64,000 nt of DNA from a virus (taxonomy: Duplodnaviria; Caudoviricetes). Every line of letters begins with the position of its first letter. Position 1 is the first letter of the stretch. The DNA is taken from the IMG/VR virus record IMGVR_UViG_3300009285_001653, positions 43-64,042 of that record; one strand, given 5' to 3'. This document shows, in pieces, positions 6,268 through 46,757 of this stretch. Position numbers and translations under genes: made by a program. The notes under the pieces were generated by a model. That model saw only the letters and a list, made by a program, of their open reading frames with translations. It did not search any database and had not been told where the DNA came from.

Positions 6268-6810
6268 ATGATTAGTATCAACGGTAAAAGACTAGACTCT
6301 GTTACACCAGAACAGATTAAGAAGATCATTCTCGATAGTGCGATGGCGAATGGTAGAAAGTTATTCGTTGTAAGAATGAATGGAGAACCAATCTCTAGCA
6401 ATCAGATCCCCGACCCGATACCGGACGGCACGACATTCTGGACATCATTCCCTGTCGTCAACGCGATTGTGTTAAATGTTGTACTCGCAAACCCACAAGA
6501 GTACAGACAGAAGAATAGTATTACTAGGACACTAGAGTTACCTAAAAGGATCCCTAGGACTAGAGAACAGATCTTGGATATGCTTGGCAGGAAGTGTTGT
6601 AGATGTGGCTATGATGCTGATGTGCGCGCTTTACAAATAGATCACATAAACGGCGGTGGCCGTGGGGAGAGGAAAAAGCTCAGAGGCTATGATAGATATT
6701 ATAAGCATATTTTAGCAAATCCAGCTGGGTATCAAATCCTCTGCGCGAACTGTAATTGTATCAAGATGTACGAAGAAGATGAGATCAGCCAACGTTATCA
6801 GGTGGAATAG
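6268..6810 (+). CDS. HNH endonuclease with an N-terminal Ubl-like domain
   Basis: CCRCG...LQIDHINGGG...LCANCN HNH core; N-terminal 60 aa align by eye with ORF 7986. Confidence 0.8.
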   Translation: MISINGKRLDSVTPEQIKKIILDSAMANGRKLFVVRMNGEPISSNQIPDPIPDGTTFWTSFPVVNAIVLNVVLANPQEYRQKNSITRTLELPKRIPRTREQILDMLGRKCCRCGYDADVRALQIDHINGGGRGERKKLRGYDRYYKHILANPAGYQILCANCNCIKMYEEDEISQRYQVE

Positions 6811-7532: not shown

Positions 7533-7820
7533 ATGGGTGTGTTTGATACCATAAAACTACCAAATGGTGACGAGGCTCAGGTAAAGCTATGGGGCCGTTG
7601 CGCACATACCTACCATCTGGGTGATATTGTGCCTGCGTTACACACCTCTAACGCTACCATGACCTACTTAATCGCGTTACGAGAAGGAGGCTTTGTAAAT
7701 ATCGTTAATGACGTGCTAGTGTCTTTTATTACTGAACTTCCCCCCATATTCGATAAGTGGGGCAGCGGGGACTGGCAAGATGAGGATTATTTGTTTAATG
7801 GGAAAGCCGTAGAAGGTTGA
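7533..7820 (+). CDS. Hypothetical phage protein
   Basis: GGAGG RBS; starts MGVFDTI. Confidence 0.65.
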   Translation: MGVFDTIKLPNGDEAQVKLWGRCAHTYHLGDIVPALHTSNATMTYLIALREGGFVNIVNDVLVSFITELPPIFDKWGSGDWQDEDYLFNGKAVEG

Positions 7821-7985: not shown

Positions 7986-8222
7986 ATGGCTGGTTGGAAC
8001 ACGAACGCGACTCTGAACGGTAACGCGATTGAGCCGGGTGGCAACTTTCGTACAACCGTTACAGCAAAAGCAGCGCAGCTCGGGTACACAAACTTCCGAG
8101 TATTGCTCAATGGCTCTGAGTTAGATGTCGGCGGGGCACCAGAGCTGGTCAATGCCGGAGCGGTGATCGAAGTCCGGCCTTTCGATAAGGCTGGAAAGAA
8201 GGCTGGAAAGTCTAGCAGCTAG
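7986..8222 (+). CDS. Ubiquitin-like (beta-grasp, ThiS/MoaD-like) protein with a C-terminal extension
   Basis: 78 aa; FRVLLNG and terminal strand VIEVRPFDKAG followed by KKAGKSSS; GAGGAGG RBS; directly upstream of E1 and JAB genes. Confidence 0.75.
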   Translation: MAGWNTNATLNGNAIEPGGNFRTTVTAKAAQLGYTNFRVLLNGSELDVGGAPELVNAGAVIEVRPFDKAGKKAGKSSS

Positions 8223-8281
8223 GACAAGGTACATAGGAGACGCTGCACCCGTCTCCACTACCAACTCGAGGAGGAATTATT

Positions 8282-10066
8282 ATGGCTTTTATAGAAGTAG
8301 ATCGGAGCAGAGTAGCTAAGTGGCCCGGAGAACCAGGTGGCTATGAGCATGATAGGTATGGTCTACCTTTACCGGGCAGGTATATCTCCCTAGACGAGTG
8401 CTCTCAGACTGCGTCATATACTAGGATAGTTGGCGGGCCACTTGCCGGCAAGAGGGTGCTTACTGGCCGGTTATATGCAGCACGCGGGCCGAACACGCAC
8501 GCGACATATAGCGTGTGTACGGATTGTGGTTGTATAAGAGGGACTCCACCGGGGTATTGTCATAGGACCCCCACAGAGATAGATGATGCTCATCTAGCTT
8601 GTCCTACCTGCAGTCACCATTTTTGTAGACACTGCTATATGCCATCAGAAAGACCCCTTTGTGCGGTATGTGAGCAACGACGCCATGAGTATAGGAGTTG
8701 GACTACACAAGGGCGTGACCAGAGACTAGCTAACATACAGAGGTTGGGAAGAAGTGCTTTTCCTACAATATCTCTATGGGAGAGAGACGGGGCTGCGTTA
8801 CAAGAATCATTTCCCTTCGTATATGAGCCCAATCTTCTTATACTAAGAGGAGATCTGGAAGCGGATATTACAGAGGAGGCTCAAGCGCTGCTAAGAAGAG
8901 ACCTGTGGTGTCACATTACAAATGGTGGAAGGAGTAGTAGGGTATACATCACGACTGATATAGAAGGCACAGGTCTTTTTGAGCACTACCATGTAGGTTG
9001 TTGGGGTGATGTTCAACTTCCTGTGGGTGCTACTCCAGCACAAATAGCAGAAATAGCCCATGATGTGTTGACCGTAGTAAATGGAGCCTCGCCTGCACGA
9101 GAGCGTCCAATAGGACTACCTTATACCGTAGCTCACATACCACACGGGCCAACGAGATCAACTCGTGGCTGGAATACAGAGAGGATACGTGTGCTAACCG
9201 AGCGAGAGAGACTACTGCAAGACATATTTAGTAGGCAGCAGGGGGTAGATCTGGCTGTACCGGAATCTATAATGGTGGTGGGTTGCGGGGGGGTTGGGTG
9301 GTATGTCGCACTGCAAGCCGCTCTCATAGGAGTAAAGAGGATATTGTTAGTAGATTATGATCATATAGATCTCACTAATATGAGTAGGCTACCTACGAGT
9401 ATGGTGGATATGTTAAAAGCAACAGACCTGGCACACATGATAAATGGTAGTACATGGAGAGCTCTGGTAGGTACAGACACATATAACTGTGCTGTCTACG
9501 AGCGCCAAGTACAGGAGCTTTCGGAACATATAAACACGGGATTTTTTAGGACTAGCTTTGGGCCACATTATCCAATAGAGAACAGGCCTTTAGATGTTAT
9601 ATTAGATACTACAGATGACATAGCCACCCAGAGAAGTATCTACCGCATGGCTAGAAGGTGCGGGGCGAGGTATATTAGAGCGGGATACGATGGAGGCTGG
9701 CACGTTACTGTGAGTTCAAGAGAATCGCCGGAGTGGGAAGTAGAAGGAACAACTCCAGGTTATAGAGTAGCGGCGTGGGTTGGTGGAGCACAGTTCGCTG
9801 CTAGTATAGCTATTACGAAGATGTGCTATAAGCCTGAGTTGGAAATTAGCGCCGATATTAGGCATATGCTAGTGCAGTTCCATCAGGAGGATTTAGTAGT
9901 AACTGAAGACATTTCTACCTGGGTGGAGGTACCGGAGGAGGAAGGAATACCAGTACTAGAGGTGGAGGAAGGAATACCTACAGTAGAAGAAATACCTGTA
10001 AACCGTATACCATTTCCGCCACCGCAAATGTGGACGGTGTATAGTGATACAGCATCTACAGTTTAG
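8282..10066 (+). CDS. Zn-finger + E2-like + ThiF/E1 adenylyltransferase fusion
   Basis: Four CxxC pairs (8516-8671); HYHVGCWG (8984-9007); E1 motifs VVGCGGVG, DYDxIDLTNMSR and DTTDD. Confidence 0.8.
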   Translation: MAFIEVDRSRVAKWPGEPGGYEHDRYGLPLPGRYISLDECSQTASYTRIVGGPLAGKRVLTGRLYAARGPNTHATYSVCTDCGCIRGTPPGYCHRTPTEIDDAHLACPTCSHHFCRHCYMPSERPLCAVCEQRRHEYRSWTTQGRDQRLANIQRLGRSAFPTISLWERDGAALQESFPFVYEPNLLILRGDLEADITEEAQALLRRDLWCHITNGGRSSRVYITTDIEGTGLFEHYHVGCWGDVQLPVGATPAQIAEIAHDVLTVVNGASPARERPIGLPYTVAHIPHGPTRSTRGWNTERIRVLTERERLLQDIFSRQQGVDLAVPESIMVVGCGGVGWYVALQAALIGVKRILLVDYDHIDLTNMSRLPTSMVDMLKATDLAHMINGSTWRALVGTDTYNCAVYERQVQELSEHINTGFFRTSFGPHYPIENRPLDVILDTTDDIATQRSIYRMARRCGARYIRAGYDGGWHVTVSSRESPEWEVEGTTPGYRVAAWVGGAQFAASIAITKMCYKPELEISADIRHMLVQFHQEDLVVTEDISTWVEVPEEEGIPVLEVEEGIPTVEEIPVNRIPFPPPQMWTVYSDTASTV

Positions 10067-10087
10067 TAAGGAGGAGGAAAAGAGATA

Positions 10088-11008
10088 GTGTCAGGATATG
10101 ACGATACTTTCGGTCATTATGCAGATCATAGCGAACCAGCACCATTTTTGCCGCAAGACCAAGGCGGATGGACGACGGGGGATCAAGTACCTACTCACCA
10201 TTCTTGTCCATATACGACGGGGACTATTTACTTAGCACCACTGGCTTATGCTAAGATTACCGCTCTTATGGACAAGTTTAATAAAGAGTGGTTAGCATAT
10301 ATGCTAGGAAAGTGGGTAGATGAGAATGTCGTTGTAGACGACTTGTACATACCGGAACAGGTATCGTCAGCAGCAACCGTGTCAAACGTGGAAGAATCTC
10401 CTCCCGAGGGGACTATTGGCGTAATGCACTCTCATGTACGGATGGGAGCGTTCTTTAGCGGAACTGATGACGAGTTCATCAATAGCAATCATAGGATAAG
10501 TATAGTAGTTAGTAGATCGCGGGGCAGCGAAGATTTGGTATTTAAGTCGAGCGTGAGGAAGCAGGTAGCTTGTGGCATAACAATGCTACTAGAAATGCCC
10601 GTAAGGATGGCTGTTGTTACGCCACAGATACGGGACTGGATAGAAGAGTGCTCACCAAGAGTTAAAGACTGGGTTTATAAAGCACCAGTCCAGAAAGCAA
10701 GTATTCTGAGTGTAGAGAAGAGGAGGATACCGTGGTGGGAGAAGAAGGCAGAGGTTAATGATCCACTGTCTGCTCTACTAGAAAAAGTAGATGAGATGGC
10801 TTTGCTAACACCACAATTACTTACTTCATATAGTAATGCTTTTCCGCCCGGGGTAAGGGTGTTTGATGCTGTAAAAACAGTGGATAATAAGACACTACTA
10901 GAAGCGCTTACCTATATGGAGAGGTTCGGTCTTGACAAGCCGGGTCAGATACAGTATAACAAGTATACAGTAGCATATAGAGAGATGTCAAAGAGGTTAA
11001 AGGAATGA
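10088..11008 (+). CDS. JAB/MPN+ metalloprotease (Ubl-processing or deconjugating)
   Basis: EW...HSHxxMGAFFSGTD is a complete JAMM motif. Confidence 0.9.
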   Translation: MSGYDDTFGHYADHSEPAPFLPQDQGGWTTGDQVPTHHSCPYTTGTIYLAPLAYAKITALMDKFNKEWLAYMLGKWVDENVVVDDLYIPEQVSSAATVSNVEESPPEGTIGVMHSHVRMGAFFSGTDDEFINSNHRISIVVSRSRGSEDLVFKSSVRKQVACGITMLLEMPVRMAVVTPQIRDWIEECSPRVKDWVYKAPVQKASILSVEKRRIPWWEKKAEVNDPLSALLEKVDEMALLTPQLLTSYSNAFPPGVRVFDAVKTVDNKTLLEALTYMERFGLDKPGQIQYNKYTVAYREMSKRLKE

Positions 11009-11053
11009 TGAGGCAGACAACCACGATGAATCTAATGGGCCGGAGGAGTAGCC

Positions 11054-30482: not shown

Positions 30483-32789
30483 ATGAGCCTTAACCTCATA
30501 CCAGGTCTAGTAGACTGTAAAAACTGCGATCTATACCAGAACGGTTTTGTTGTGCCTGGGCGCGGACCTGTTCCCGCTCAGACAATGTTCGTAGGAGAGG
30601 CTCCTGGTCGCGAAGAGAACAATACTGGTGTACCATTTATCGGCGCAGCTGGTAAGTTGTTGACTAAGTTGATAGAGTTAGCAGGAATTGACCCAGCAGG
30701 CGCATATTTTACAAACGTTGTCAAGCATTGGCCTGGGGAAGGTAATCCTACTCCTAAGATAAAGTACATGAGGGCCTGTGGTGCTTGGCTTAACACGGAG
30801 ATAGAACAAGTTGATCCGTACATCATTGTAATGCTAGGCAAGACTGCTATATCTCGTCTAGCGCCGGACCTGAAACTCAAGCTGCATCATGGGCAGAAGT
30901 TTACAAGGGAGATGAACGGTAGAAACCGAACACTCATCCCGATGTACCATCCTGCTGCTATGTTACATCAACGAGCATTGAAACCAATTATAGAGTATGA
31001 CTTTAGACAGCTATTGGAAGATAATCTCATTCCTCCACCAGTCAAATCAATCCCAGAAGAACCGCCATTTCAGACTGTTCCTATCGAACTACCAGGAGTA
31101 GATCAGCCCACCGTCCTAGCTATAGACCTAGAGACTACTGGCCTTGACCCAGAGACAGATAACATTGTATGCGTGTCCTGGGCTTGGGAGAAGAATGAGG
31201 GCCACGTTACCTATTATGTTGCAGAGTTCATGGACTGGATAAAAGGGTGGAGAGGTCCAGTAGTCTTTCATAATGCTCAGTTTGATATGGCGTTCATGGC
31301 TAAGTACGGTGTGTATTTTCCTCCTGAGAAAATCTGGGATACGATGCTGAGTGGCTATGTATTGGGAAAAGAGAGGTTGAGTCTCAAAGGCCGAGCGATG
31401 TTAGAGCTCGGATATGAGATGGAAACGTTTGAGGCGCTCGCGGGGGAAAAGCCAAAGGATGCTAGTCTAATACCCCCAGAGGAACTCGTTCCGTATGCTG
31501 CTGCCGATGCTGTTGTAACAAGGATCTTCTACCAAAGAGATAGAACAGAAATAGCTATGAATCATGCGGGCCCTATACTTGATATACAGCATCAACTTAT
31601 ACCTGTGTTGGACAATATGCGGCGAAGGGGCATATTGGTAGATCGGGAAAAGTTACAGGCCTTGAAGGTCGAGGCTACTAGGGAGAAGATAGACGCTACT
31701 GTTAAGGTGTGGGAGACAGTAGGGCATGATTTCAACATGGACTCTCTACCGCAACTACGACACGTTTTGTTTGATGAGTTGGGACTAAGGCCACTAAAGA
31801 GGACAAAGAGTAGGGCGGCTTGGAGCACCGATAGCGAATCTCTAAAGATCCTTTCATCACAACATCCCATAGTACCAGCTCTACTTGACTATCGAGAAAT
31901 AGGCAAAATGCGAGGAACGTATATCGAGCCAGTAGAGAAGCATCTAGGGAAAGATGGTCGTGTTCATCCGACCTGGCTGCAAATAGGGACGAGGTCCAGC
32001 AGGCTCAGTTGTGAAAATCCCAACGCACAGAACCAGCCTTCTCGGAGCGAGGTATGGAAGAAGAAGATACGAGGGTTGTATGTGGCGGCTCCTAATAACA
32101 TTCTGCTCTCTGCGGACTACTCGCAGGTTGAGCTCAGGGTCGCGGCCGCGTTAAGCAGTGATGTGAGGATGAGAGAGATTTACGAAAGTGGTGGTAATAT
32201 ACATCTCTATACACTACATAACATACTAAGGTTGCCTGGGGCTGATTCTCAGTCCCATCCTGCTGAGTACAAATTAAGTAAGAACATCAACTTTGGCATG
32301 ATTTACAGGTTGAGTGACAAGGGGCTACAAAGATACCTATGGACTATGGCAGGCATACGTGTAAGTTTGGAAGAGTCCCACAAAATCAGAACACAATTCC
32401 TGAATGAGTTTCCGGGTCTTATGGCATGGGAAGATACTGTGGTCAAACAGGTTATGAATTACGGTTGGACAGAGACACTTTTGCACCACAGGCGCTACTT
32501 CCCAGAACTTGACCCACAGGATCCAGAAGAGACGCTTAAGGCCGCTATAAACCACCCAGTACAAGGCACAGCTGGAGGAGACATAATGAGGACAGCTATG
32601 GTTAGATTAGGGCATCTTCCCCTCATCCTCAACATACACGACGAGTTGGTGTTTGAGCTGCCAGAAAGTGAGGTAGGCGAGATAAAAAACGAGGTTTGTG
32701 GTATAATGATAGAGACAGCAGAGAGTCTGCTAGGCTTCCCGGTCGAGGTTGATGTGGCAGTTGGAAAGAATTGGGGAGAGCTGGATTAA
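30483..32789 (+). CDS. polA: Family A DNA polymerase with an N-terminal family-4 UDG-like domain and 3'-5' exonuclease
   Basis: VGEAPG...HPA (UDG); DLETTG and HNAQFD (exonuclease); DYSQVELR, KNINFG and IHDE (polymerase). Confidence 0.95.
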   Translation: MSLNLIPGLVDCKNCDLYQNGFVVPGRGPVPAQTMFVGEAPGREENNTGVPFIGAAGKLLTKLIELAGIDPAGAYFTNVVKHWPGEGNPTPKIKYMRACGAWLNTEIEQVDPYIIVMLGKTAISRLAPDLKLKLHHGQKFTREMNGRNRTLIPMYHPAAMLHQRALKPIIEYDFRQLLEDNLIPPPVKSIPEEPPFQTVPIELPGVDQPTVLAIDLETTGLDPETDNIVCVSWAWEKNEGHVTYYVAEFMDWIKGWRGPVVFHNAQFDMAFMAKYGVYFPPEKIWDTMLSGYVLGKERLSLKGRAMLELGYEMETFEALAGEKPKDASLIPPEELVPYAAADAVVTRIFYQRDRTEIAMNHAGPILDIQHQLIPVLDNMRRRGILVDREKLQALKVEATREKIDATVKVWETVGHDFNMDSLPQLRHVLFDELGLRPLKRTKSRAAWSTDSESLKILSSQHPIVPALLDYREIGKMRGTYIEPVEKHLGKDGRVHPTWLQIGTRSSRLSCENPNAQNQPSRSEVWKKKIRGLYVAAPNNILLSADYSQVELRVAAALSSDVRMREIYESGGNIHLYTLHNILRLPGADSQSHPAEYKLSKNINFGMIYRLSDKGLQRYLWTMAGIRVSLEESHKIRTQFLNEFPGLMAWEDTVVKQVMNYGWTETLLHHRRYFPELDPQDPEETLKAAINHPVQGTAGGDIMRTAMVRLGHLPLILNIHDELVFELPESEVGEIKNEVCGIMIETAESLLGFPVEVDVAVGKNWGELD

Positions 32790-44077: not shown

Positions 44078-44479
44078 TTACTTCTCCTTACTTATTGGGT
44101 TTGATTGTATATGGAACACTGTATGCCCCACAGCGTTTCTCCGTTGTTTATCAACTATGGTATGTATTGTATCCATAGGACGTGGTTTGGGGTTGCGAGG
44201 TCCGTTGGGCAAGAACGGGCGCTCTGCTCTCTTCATAGCCATCTCCTTTAGCTCTTGTCGAAAATACTGCCCTCCACCAATTACGACAATCGGCCTATCT
44301 GCGTCATTATACACGTAGAGGTCTGGCTTCGTATCCTGGAGGCGCTTATCTGCGTCCTTAGCCAATTCTGCATCCCTTTTCGCTTTCGTCGCTAGAGCCA
44401 TGTTGCGTTTAATACGCATCTCGGCCCAACGCTTCAAATCATCCATAGTACGAATAGGAACGTAAAGTTTAGTTGCCAT
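44078..44479 (-). CDS. Hypothetical basic protein
   Basis: Probable start MATKLY after AGAGG. Confidence 0.55.
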   Translation of the reverse strand: MATKLYVPIRTMDDLKRWAEMRIKRNMALATKAKRDAELAKDADKRLQDTKPDLYVYNDADRPIVVIGGGQYFRQELKEMAMKRAERPFLPNGPRNPKPRPMDTIHTIVDKQRRNAVGHTVFHIQSNPISKEK

Positions 44480-46757
44480 AGTTCCTCTGTAGGTGTAAGA
44501 TAGGACGTTGGCGATCACTTAGCCCCAACACTCTAGCCGCCCAACCCTTCCTTCTAAAGGAAACTATCCAGTCTTCTGTAGTAGTTGTGCTACCATACTG
44601 TCCCACAGTAGGAGGCTCGAAATACACTTCCTCCGCCTGGTGCTTATCTATCAGTTCCCATAGATGCTCTGGATGCTTGAGGTGCATCACTACGGAAAGG
44701 GCGAAGACTATATCAACGTTACCAAACAGCGCCTTAGTTGTTGCGTCAGGAGTATCTATATCAATGGCAAGAAACCGTCCAAGCTGTACTAATTCTCTAG
44801 CTGCTCGAATTATCGCTTCGTCTTTATCTATACCTATTGCAGAAAGCGCTCCTTCTTCTAACGCCTTCCTCACAAACCACCCGGCATTACACCCTATATC
44901 CAAAACCTTCTTGTCTCTGACACTAGGCTTCATAATGTCCCAGCGCACCTGATTGTCGCGCTCAAACTCCATACCCAGTCCCATATCAGCATAGCTTTTT
45001 ACAGAACCAGTGCTAGAGCTTAACGCCAAGTCCTTGCGTACATCGTCTTCTGGTATGAGCTCTTGAAGCAAGATACGAAGACCTGTAGGAGCTGAGTCGG
45101 GAGCTATCTTAGTCTCTGTGCTATCAGCAGTCATCCAATAGCCGTCCTTGTCTTCAATCGCCCAACCATAATCCACTAGCGACGCCTTACCATAGCCATC
45201 TACCACCACATTCTCGAACTTAATATCTCTATGTGCTATATTATGTTGGTGAAGGTAGTCAACAATCTTGACAACCTGGTTATAAATGTCCCAACGAGTT
45301 TCGAGAGGCAGGTTCATGTCTACAGGCTCTCCTCTATACTCTTGGACTAAACAAGTTCTGCCAAACTCATTCCCAAAGTGTGCAATAACCTTTGGTATGC
45401 CAGGATGATCTAACTTATCCATGATAGCAATACGGTCATCGAATCTCTTTCCACCATGACCGCCATCTATGCTAATTACTACATCCTGTTCCTCATACCG
45501 CGCCTTATACACACTGGACGAAGTATTGCCGCTAAGCTTCTCACCAAACTCTACACCTTGACCACTAATTGTAGCTGGGGCAGGTGTCTCAAGCTCTGAC
45601 TTTACCCTTGCCAGAAACGGCTGCCACAGTTCAGCGTACAGATGATCCCAATCGTAGTTCTTTGCAAACGTACTAACTATTCTACGCCACGGGTAGCCAT
45701 CGCAGGTTCCAGCATGACAATCACAAGGCTTACTTAGCTGGTCATAGGCTTTAATCATAGCCTCGGTAAGTTTATCAGGATCCACGTCCCACTGTGCCGC
45801 ATATCCTACGCCAATGTACTTCTTACCAGGCACCAAAATCCTCATATCTTCTTGCGTAAGCTCTGGCATTGAGGTACAATCTGTGGCTATCACGGGTACT
45901 CCGCAAGCCTGAGCTTCTAGTACCGGTATACCAAATCCCTCTCCCTGAGTCGGTAGTACAAAGCAGTCAAAGCTGTTGTACATAGCTCTCATATTAGCTT
46001 CGTCATAGCCCAAAAAGAGCGGATAAGGGTCGCTAAACATATACGCGTCCTTGTCCAAACCTATTACCTCGGCTATTCGGTTGAGGTCGAAATGAGGGTC
46101 GCTAGTAGCAGTAGAAGTAGTATGCAGATAAAGTAGGGTGTTTGGTCGTTCATCACGCACTGTCTTGTACGCTTCTAGCAGTCTATCAAACCCTTTTCTA
46201 CTAGGCCAGTAGGCATTAAGCCCCACTATGCCGTACACAAACACGTCTTTACCTATTCCAAATGCTTCCCGCCATGCCTTTCGACCACCATCGTCCTGGT
46301 AGTAGTTCTTACTAATGCCGATGGGGATAAGCTCATTTTCTACGCCCGCCTCATCCAGTTGTTTCTTACCATGCTGGCTCATTGCGAGAACTTTCCATGT
46401 ATACACTAATCTGTCTTTGTAGACATAGGAGAGTGGCTCATGGTCAATCGGCACCCACGCAACCCACTTGAAACTCTCGCCGCCAAACCCGTCCGTATGC
46501 CACAAGTCCCATAAACTCATCACAAAATCAGGCTTCCAGAAGTCTATATGAGCAAGGATGACATCGGCTTGGGATATGAACTGGCCTTCGGGAAAAACTG
46601 GTATCCCCTCCCAGTCCGTCTGTCCACCTTTGAGACCGAACACCGCGGCAATCGCCACCTCGTGTCCGTCCTTTTTTAAGCTACGCGCAAGTCTGGCTGT
46701 TACAGTGCCATAACCGCTAGCGCACCACGGCGCTACACTAACTAACATGATCCGCAT
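44469..46757 (-). CDS. GT4 glycosyltransferase + kinase-like + SAM methyltransferase fusion
   Basis: SGYG, RKG and EGFGIPVLEAQACG (GT4); HRDIKFEN and DYG (kinase); VLDIGCNAG (MTase). Confidence 0.88.
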   Translation of the reverse strand: MRIMLVSVAPWCASGYGTVTARLARSLKKDGHEVAIAAVFGLKGGQTDWEGIPVFPEGQFISQADVILAHIDFWKPDFVMSLWDLWHTDGFGGESFKWVAWVPIDHEPLSYVYKDRLVYTWKVLAMSQHGKKQLDEAGVENELIPIGISKNYYQDDGGRKAWREAFGIGKDVFVYGIVGLNAYWPSRKGFDRLLEAYKTVRDERPNTLLYLHTTSTATSDPHFDLNRIAEVIGLDKDAYMFSDPYPLFLGYDEANMRAMYNSFDCFVLPTQGEGFGIPVLEAQACGVPVIATDCTSMPELTQEDMRILVPGKKYIGVGYAAQWDVDPDKLTEAMIKAYDQLSKPCDCHAGTCDGYPWRRIVSTFAKNYDWDHLYAELWQPFLARVKSELETPAPATISGQGVEFGEKLSGNTSSSVYKARYEEQDVVISIDGGHGGKRFDDRIAIMDKLDHPGIPKVIAHFGNEFGRTCLVQEYRGEPVDMNLPLETRWDIYNQVVKIVDYLHQHNIAHRDIKFENVVVDGYGKASLVDYGWAIEDKDGYWMTADSTETKIAPDSAPTGLRILLQELIPEDDVRKDLALSSSTGSVKSYADMGLGMEFERDNQVRWDIMKPSVRDKKVLDIGCNAGWFVRKALEEGALSAIGIDKDEAIIRAARELVQLGRFLAIDIDTPDATTKALFGNVDIVFALSVVMHLKHPEHLWELIDKHQAEEVYFEPPTVGQYGSTTTTEDWIVSFRRKGWAARVLGLSDRQRPILHLQRNYGN

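Follow-up and report, generated by a model that had tools for sequence, protein, structure and literature searches.

A 594-amino-acid open reading frame (ORF) at positions 8282-10066 of the DNA analyzed here appears to encode the ligase of a three-gene, four-function phage cassette for ubiquitin-like (Ubl) tagging. In the reading that we favor with moderate confidence on the basis of sequence comparison, the tag is relayed to Cys240 of this ligase, probably via Tyr494. The window (the whole stretch analyzed, 64,000 nucleotides) is nearly all of a 64,042-base IMG/VR virus record, IMGVR_UViG_3300009285_001653, with a completeness estimate of 67%. Its source is an uncultured tailed phage. The window carries genes for ribonucleotide reductase, a helicase, a DNA methylase, a family A polymerase and tail-fiber-like proteins, and its polymerase is less than 30% identical to the polymerase of any GenBank phage. 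Of these genes, those for ribonucleotide reductase, helicase and DNA polymerase are located downstream of the cassette. The full-length ORF is considered the true gene because it is preceded by a strong ribosome-binding site (GAGGAGG) and because its N-terminus is conserved in seven further full-length homologues, which share 35-58% identity with it and retain the N-terminal 150 residues. The database gene call (P0001) comprises just 440 amino acids, or 74% of the ORF, and misses the zinc module. Two more distant fused homologues (P0127 and P0143) were found as well. Coordinates of all features are collected in Table 1.

The mechanism that we propose has six steps. The JAMM peptidase would cut an eight-residue tail off the 78-residue tag and so expose Gly70, which the C-terminal ThiF-type domain, whose residues for this reaction are conserved, would then adenylate. 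By analogy with the Bub E1s, the acyl group may subsequently move as an oxyester onto the invariant crossover residue Tyr494, a transfer that is probable because the E1 lacks a crossover cysteine. It would next be handed to Cys240 of the middle domain, a putative and very diverged UBC-like carrier, from which the tag would be passed to a lysine of the target. The variable N-terminal module, a RING-like zinc module here and a coiled coil in most relatives, would pick or position that target. A farther-reaching version, which we consider distinctly unlikely, takes the ORF for an all-in-one enzyme that unites a RING-type E3, a new phage-specific E2 lineage and an E1, that works through a Tyr oxyester followed by a Cys thioester, and with which lytic phages tag host or phage proteins during infection. 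Such tagging would, for instance, disarm host defense or direct replication or assembly.

Central to this reading is the middle domain with its single conserved cysteine. Translation places HYHVGCWG at 8984-9007, its Cys codon at 8999-9001 and LTVVNGASP at 9068-9094, exactly as a first-pass annotation of this DNA had read them; every motif it had quoted was recovered in this way, the number of finger cysteines excepted. Both H235-Y236-H237 and C240-W241-G242 are invariant in 8/8 full-length homologues, and Cys240 is the sole invariant Cys outside the finger. A profile built from 16 domain sequences retrieved 320 cluster representatives at E <= 0.001 (230 at <= 1e-10) from 1.84 billion proteins. 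When the window domain is aligned with 149 of these representatives, Cys240 and Pro276 prove invariant (150/150), and conservation reaches 90% or more at F233, H235, Y236, H237, W241, G242, L263, N267 and S270. HYH and CWG are separated by two residues in the window protein and by up to about 18 elsewhere in the family, and the His-to-Cys spacer likewise varies in length among nine Prok-E2_A sequences. A ThiF domain is carried by nine of the 150 members; an E1 motif together with 10-11 N-terminal cysteines occurs in 10 of 157 proteins (156 family proteins and the window ORF). In a sample of ten domain clusters, the only names given are 'hypothetical protein' or 'Uncharacterized protein ... viral metagenome'. 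By these sequence criteria the middle domain defines an unnamed family, and the data support its prediction as a separable catalytic module with one invariant Cys.

The genes around this domain resemble those of a Ubl system. Motif scans gave four viral-contig and 15 metagenome-contig loci; with the duplicates L005 (identical to the window), L007 (identical to L006) and L015 (identical to L004) dropped, the resulting set holds 17 distinct loci, window included, in which genes were counted with local profiles. In 14 of the 17 loci the Cys domain is immediately preceded by a tag ORF, the other three starting at a contig edge. It is likewise immediately followed by an E1, or fused to one, in 14 loci, and here the remaining three break off within the gene for the Cys domain. 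Seven loci have an ORF with the JAMM motif after the E1; the contigs of the other 10 stop before there is room for a full JAB gene. The cassette order is thus Ubl, Cys domain, E1 and JAMM, with the Cys domain between Ubl and E1 wherever the locus reaches. In five loci (L001-L004 and L013), carrier and E1 are encoded apart: a protein of ~290 residues consists of a helical, coiled-coil-like N-terminal half and the Cys domain as its C-terminal half, and a second protein, of ~195 residues, is the E1. The N-terminal halves of the carriers in L008, L010 and L012 are of still other kinds. All seven aligned relatives of the tag have a C-terminus that reads D-x-A-G followed by 0-8 residues, three of them stopping exactly at the Gly, an end that fits trimming by the JAMM peptidase. 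The latter scores 31 bits with Pfam Prok-JAB (cut-off 25) and has an intact metal motif, H-x-H-x7-S-x2-D (HSH-x7-S-x2-D); a PDB sequence and profile search with it returned nothing meaningful.

Some loci depart from this layout in detail. In L004 (8956-9627, minus strand) and its duplicate L015, an opposite-strand ORF that by eye resembles a GIY-YIG homing endonuclease lies between E1 and JAB. L003 has an extra 154-residue ORF at the same place (9097-9561) and a JAB protein of 487 residues (9588-11051) with a long Cys-rich C-terminal extension. In the window itself, a 180-residue ORF at 6268-6810 (plus strand) has a C-terminal half that is HNH/endonuclease VII-like (Pfam E 0.022, below the cut-off); the ORF is also hit by the tag profile (E 4.5e-4), which faintly suggests a second Ubl-like domain fused to a nuclease. 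Two other candidate assignments were rejected. The ORF at 7533-7820 is not regarded as a RING protein, its weak zf-rbx1 match (E 0.015) falling on a single-Cys protein, and neither is the cassette regarded as a PRTRC system, the matches to PRTRC_A (E 0.003) and PRTRC_ThiF (5e-4) being far under the cut-offs.

The predicted fold of the middle domain points in the direction of E2 enzymes. An AlphaFold2 model of residues 150-300, made with the 150-row alignment, reached a predicted local distance difference test (pLDDT) score of 89.2 and a predicted template modeling (pTM) score of 0.80. An unbiased structure search with this model gave E2/UBC domains only among the first 25 matches listed, and in a second look all 50 matches listed were E2/UBC. 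These best and, at the top of the matches listed, only relatives are canonical UBC E2s such as UbcH5, Ube2T, UbcH10 and Pex4p, with which the model seems to share a Cys in a long loop before the main helix and a preceding His. Model residues 16-140 align with residues 24-136 of UbcH5 (90-97 residues, root-mean-square deviation 3.5-5 Å). Cys240, residue 91 of the model, lies 12 residues upstream of the helix 252-262 (model 103-113) and 3-5 residues past H237 and H235. Its place before this helix is presumably that of the UBC catalytic Cys before helix 2. A Foldseek search against PDB and BFVD returned no match at E <= 0.001, with UbcH8 and UbcH5 at E 1-2. In the ESM Atlas, the best scores (0.85, to MlaD clusters) are no better than chance on the figures that the tool itself supplies, and PDB sequence and profile searches with the Cys domain returned nothing meaningful. 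The full-length fold, predicted from eight sequences, has a mean pLDDT of 56 and stays below 50 in the Cys loop; it supports no claim on the fold.

The C-terminal part of the ligase is a minimal adenylation domain of the ThiF type. Pfam ThiF (PF00899) matches residues 329-469 with 54 bits against a cut-off of 28.1, and 8/8 full-length homologues match it too. A profile of this E1 family matches MccB, UBA6, ThiF, TcdA, UBA5, Uba4, MoeB and Cap2, and more weakly BubCD. Invariant in 12/12 E1s are GxGGxG (G334-G339, 9281-9298), D358, N366, R369, K379 and D442-T444-D445; the Gly-rich loop and the Asp, Asn, Arg, Lys and Asp residues are assigned to nucleotide binding and adenylation from what is established for such enzymes. 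The catalytic Cys that a canonical E1 carries in its crossover, or inserted into it, is found in none of the 15 fused and split family E1s: the stretch from AGY(D/N)G to the helix that follows the crossover holds no Cys, and in the translation of 9674-9832 (IRAGYDGGWHVTVSSRESPEWEVEGTTPGYRVAAWVGG...KMCYK) the first Cys is C515. Alignment with E. coli ThiF shows the first CxxC as a gap in 7/7 phage E1s and the second beyond their C-termini. Together with the 15 family E1s, this alignment bears out the earlier description of an E1 that lacks both the CxxC zinc pairs and a crossover Cys. At residues 391-438 (9452-9595), E1s of the fused lineage have an insertion that opens with an invariant T-W-R and is roughly 30-50 residues long; split E1s lack it.

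What the first-pass annotation had overlooked in the crossover is Tyr494, which is present in 15/15 E1s; W485 and W499 are likewise invariant, in fused and split forms that share 25-67% identity. In a MAFFT alignment, Tyr494 is one column off the crossover Cys of ThiF, which lies in the ...NCRTAG segment. According to Iyer et al. 2006 (PMC1779556), that Cys links to ThiS. The direct passage of Ubl-AMP to the E2-like Cys, which the earlier annotation had put forward, is weakened by this invariant residue. In such a route, which keeps some appeal and is nonetheless unlikely in our view, Cys240 attacks the tag adenylate itself, no covalent E1 intermediate is formed, Tyr494 is structural and the finger serves as a RING-type E3. 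Enzymes of the ThiF/MoeB type do pass adenylates on to external nucleophiles, and the lack of a crossover Cys in all 15 E1s agrees with this chemistry, but the invariance of Tyr494, W485 and W499 across both forms, and the proximity of Tyr494 to the ThiF crossover Cys, do not. For MoeB, no covalent link has been reported (Iyer et al. 2006, PMC1779556). The fusion of carrier and E1 could bring Cys240 to the adenylation site, yet proximity by fusion is not general because most family members have the carrier as a protein of its own. The spacing of the finger, which fits the RING consensus in the window protein and four others, would also suit this route. Against it stands the requirement for the equivalent Tyr in Bub systems, whose E1s are reportedly the only others without a crossover Cys. 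In these, a Tyr-type crossover residue acts as the catalytic nucleophile, and the changes Y370F in BubCD and Y342F in BubBD abolish conjugation (Ye et al., 10.1101/2024.11.21.623953). Because the Bub E1s without a crossover Cys keep an invariant Tyr and its replacement by Phe abolishes conjugation, we consider, by analogy, an oxyester step at Tyr494 appreciably likelier than direct attack on the adenylate.

At the other end of the ligase, the translation of 8516-8674 reads CTDCGC...YC...CPTCSHHFCRHC...CAVC. The finger motifs CTDC...CAVC quoted by the earlier annotation are thus present; its count of eight cysteines has to be corrected to 10 (C79, 82, 84, 93, 107, 110, 115, 118, 127 and 130), to which a conserved His112 adds. 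C79, C82, C84, C93, C110, H112, C115, C118, C127 and C130 are invariant in 8/8 full-length homologues, which have their additional finger Cys at position 107 or 108. The spacing C79-x2-C82-x27-C110-x-H112-x2-C115-x2-C118-x8-C127-x2-C130 fits the general C3HC4 consensus of RING fingers in ligand order and distance. Only 6 of 100,000 shuffles of residues 1-140 match the same pattern. The window module differs from RING fingers in three extra conserved cysteines (C84, C93 and C107), in sub-threshold Pfam scores and in the distance between the fifth and sixth ligands, which runs from 1 to 3 in homologues; the fused proteins that fall off the strict pattern have a value of 1 or 3 there. Rare RING fingers of prokaryotes were reportedly described by Burroughs and co-workers in 2011. 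Sub-threshold Pfam matches on the finger (E 0.003-0.06) are to IBR_1 in two of the eight full-length homologues and to zf-C3HC4 and zf-C3HC4_2 in one each. In the full-length model this region is of low confidence (pLDDT about 55-65). No stand-alone or otherwise fused homologue of the N-terminal module was found among the shorter proteins searched in a set of 5.8 billion. A predicted complex of module 1-140 with the Cys domain and three Zn scored 0.00 with a mark of 0.32 and speaks neither for nor against binding, the fold of the partner being uncertain. Most members of the middle-domain family carry a coiled coil or another N-terminal module in place of the finger. Because these modules are unrelated to one another, a role of the N-terminal module in choosing or positioning targets is a reasonable suggestion.

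Several observations weigh against the reading that we favor. The Cys domain has no Pfam match at E <= 0.1 in the window protein or at E <= 5 in the 150 members, and no PHROG, NCBIfam or PADLOC model covers it. With hhalign, the family reaches a probability of 0.4% against Cap2-type Prok-E2_B and 0.2% against Prok-E2_A, thin profiles of four and nine sequences, respectively, that recognize each other at 81.6% as a positive control. Because of these values, the middle domain is kept out of the known E2 families. The placement of Cys240 at the E2 Cys position follows only from the aligned ranges of the model and the helix that comes after. The tag has no detectable beta-grasp signature and no Pfam or PDB sequence match. 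By score, the E1 is not specially close to Bub (BubCD 38 bits, versus 63 for MccB and 62 for ThiF), and because of this the crossover Tyr may be convergent or structural. As to the finger, all Pfam zinc-finger matches in the eight full-length homologues lie below the cut-off, and the strict RING pattern fits five of the 10 fused proteins (the window protein and four of the nine others). These two results, together with the absence of a finger from most relatives, weaken the earlier idea of an E3-like role, which had been drawn from the spacing. Finally, H-x-H...C could instead be a metal site. It is conceivable, although very improbable, that the middle domain is no carrier at all, with H235, H237 and C240 binding metal or the domain acting as an adaptor or peptidase; any conjugation would then be done by the E1 alone, as UbaA does with the archaeal SAMPs. 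A fixed metal site would not usually have a spacer as variable as that between HYH and C (2 to about 18 residues), both structure searches have nothing but UBC-like entries at the top of the matches listed, and the domain has the gene position and the fusion partner of an E2. On these grounds, the middle domain is E2-like in position and in its predicted chemistry, and probably in fold. The E2-like Cys proposed by the first-pass annotation therefore stands as regards the invariance of the residue, the place of its gene between Ubl and E1 and its fusion N-terminal to the E1 as in Cap2 and BubBD, whereas sequence methods recover no E2. Taken as a whole, that annotation holds for the separable Cys module and for the losses in the E1, and falls short in the direct transfer and the E3 role.

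A different use of the same set of genes would be sulfur transfer. The small protein would then be a carrier like ThiS, MoaD or CysO that is adenylated and converted to a thiocarboxylate, Cys240 would form a persulfide, and the JAMM peptidase would trim the carrier or release the product, as the JAMM peptidases of the QbsD and Mec+ type do. This is quite improbable in our estimation. The tag does have a lone Gly, preceded by Ala, at its end and lacks a ubiquitin-like sequence signature, and ThiF, MoeB, Uba4 and TcdA are among the best profile matches of the E1; yet the eight ORFs scanned in the neighborhood include no rhodanese, cysteine desulfurase, ThiG/MoaE-like protein or thiolation enzyme, nor were any of these seen by eye among the cassette neighbors in L001-L004, L006 and L013. 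Bacterial sets of Ubl, E1 and JAB proteins do serve sulfur transfer (Iyer et al. 2006, PMC1779556), but swappable N-terminal modules (coiled coil, zinc finger and others) suit target selection, and the best fold matches of the Cys domain, among those listed, are E2s.

Under the favored reading, a tag relayed by Tyr494 and Cys240, the closest comparison is with the type II Bub system (6E.2). In BubBD, too, an E2-like domain lies N-terminal to a minimal, homodimer-type E1 in one chain, the E1 has one invariant crossover Tyr and no crossover Cys, and the tag, BubA, is a separate small protein ending in Gly. The Bub E2 has a catalytic Ser where the phage carrier has the invariant Cys240 (150/150), and the Bub operon, which is bacterial, encodes the serine protease BubE (DUF6527) instead of a JAMM peptidase. 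Among eight ORFs scanned between 6268 and 11711, no Pfam match to DUF6527 was found. Cap2 and Cap3 of type II CBASS are similar in that an E2-E1 fusion of about 575-600 residues is followed by a JAB peptidase, and Cap2 profiles (575-600 positions) align their E1 part co-linearly at residues about 297-390 of the 594-residue ligase. The E2 domain of Cap2 uses a Cys, and Cap2 conjugates the CD-NTase itself, with no dedicated tag. Its E1 is conventional and Cys-bearing, in contrast to the Cys-free crossover of the phage E1; outside Bub, every E1 is described as having its catalytic Cys within the crossover loop or close to it (Ye et al., 10.1101/2024.11.21.623953). BilABCD comprises the same four functions of tag, E2, JAB and E1, and conjugates to protein lysines without a dedicated E3 (Chambers et al., PMC10557695). 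It differs in its large IAD-AAD-CYS E1 with a catalytic Cys, in its separate genes and in being a bacterial anti-phage system, whereas the cassette described here is phage-borne. With ThiF, MoeB, UBA5 and MccB, the phage E1 shares the Rossmann adenylation core and all motifs; it differs by the absence of zinc CxxC pairs, a very short crossover, with a Tyr where ThiF has a Cys, and the fusion to a carrier. Lambdoid TAPI and TAPK are likewise a phage-encoded pair of Ubl and JAB, in which the peptidase is predicted to cleave the Ubl at its C-terminal Gly (Iyer et al. 2006, PMC1779556), but they have no E1 or carrier and belong to the tail module, while the present cassette is upstream of replication-type genes. 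The cassette is thus set apart by its carrier family, the pairing of a Tyr-E1 with a Cys-carrier, the finger fusion and its location in a virus record.

The Cys-domain family recurs in hundreds of protein clusters of uncultured viruses. A tblastn search with the whole ligase against 50,697 GenBank phage records gave no match, and a profile search found none in 401 sampled genomes of one bacterial phylum, the same profile being positive in 3/3 virus records. A motif scan of a genome-contig collection, which detects only the two-residue HYH-xx-CWG spacing, showed no relative. A looser DNA pattern run on cellular genomes gave 21 stretches, none of them a family member; one that reached E 7e-4 in hmmsearch was rejected because the sequence around its motif is unrelated by eye. 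Both genome-collection scans cannot show absence because they are limited to the two-residue spacer, which is missing in most of the family. In the literature searched, most of it open-access, no paper on a phage Ubl/E1/E2/JAB cassette or on the motif was found; a preprint on Asgard viruses describes viral E1-like genes only.

So far, prokaryotic Ubl conjugation has been known from bacterial defenses against phages (CBASS Cap2, Bil) and from bacterial operons of unknown role (Bub); here, the cassette is on the phage side. If the favored reading is true, the middle domain would represent a fourth lineage of E2-like carriers, tied to UBC by structure and not by sequence. A Cys-free, Tyr-bearing E1 would then be no peculiarity of Bub and could feed a thioester carrier. 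The system would also be very small, with a 70-residue tag, an E1 of ~200 residues and a carrier of ~140 residues, or all in 594 residues. Such compactness would be useful for the study of minimal Ubl-transfer chemistry and for finding host proteins that are tagged by phages.

Table 1. Positions of the cassette genes and of the domains and motifs of the ligase in the window.
Feature	Position	Strand	Details
Candidate ubiquitin-like tag precursor, 78 aa (amino acids)	7986..8222	+	Ends ...RPFDKAG(70)-KKAGKSSS; Gly70 codon 8193-8195
Shine-Dalgarno GAGGAGG	8268..8274	+	8 nucleotides 5' of ATG 8282
Ligase fusion protein, 594 aa	8282..10066	+	N-terminal Zn module, E2-like Cys domain, minimal E1, acidic tail
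N-terminal module, aa 1-140	8282..8701	+	Cys-rich finger aa 79-130 (8516-8671)
E2-like Cys domain, aa 158-300	8753..9181	+	
Signature loop FEHYHVGCWG	8978..9007	+	Cys240 codon 8999-9001
LTVVNGASP, end of the helix after the Cys loop and following turn	9068..9094	+	L263, N267, S270 at least 90% conserved
ThiF-type adenylating E1 domain, aa 300-535	9179..9886	+	Pfam ThiF match 9266-9688
Short crossover segment, aa 472-499, Cys-free: SRESPEWEVEGTTPGYRVAAW	9695..9778	+	Tyr494 codon 9761-9763
Acidic low-complexity C-terminal tail with ...QMWTV... (W584, 10031-10033)	9887..10063	+	Model pLDDT <50 from residue 517
JAB/JAMM metallopeptidase, 306 aa	10088..11008	+	HSHVRMGAFFSGTD at 10427-10468, residues 114-127

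A D/Q-x-W-T-like motif recurs in the C-terminal tails of the fused homologues. A related Trp, W297 (9170-9172), lies within acidic-x-x-W-(S/T)-(T/V) and is at least 90% conserved in the 150 sequences. In L001-L004 and L013, this Trp motif forms the end of the split carrier proteins. In the fused proteins, the W297 context GWNTE is the junction of carrier and E1, and a similar ...VWT... occurs in the disordered C-terminal tail. The Trp motif at the end of the carrier or in the tail may be a docking peptide. Elsewhere in the window, two further ORFs combine domains. The ORF at 44469-46757 (minus strand) encodes 762 amino acids with Pfam matches to glycosyltransferase group 1, protein kinase and class I methyltransferase, and the family A DNA polymerase at 30483-32789 (plus strand) has an N-terminal domain of the uracil-DNA glycosylase superfamily in the same ORF.

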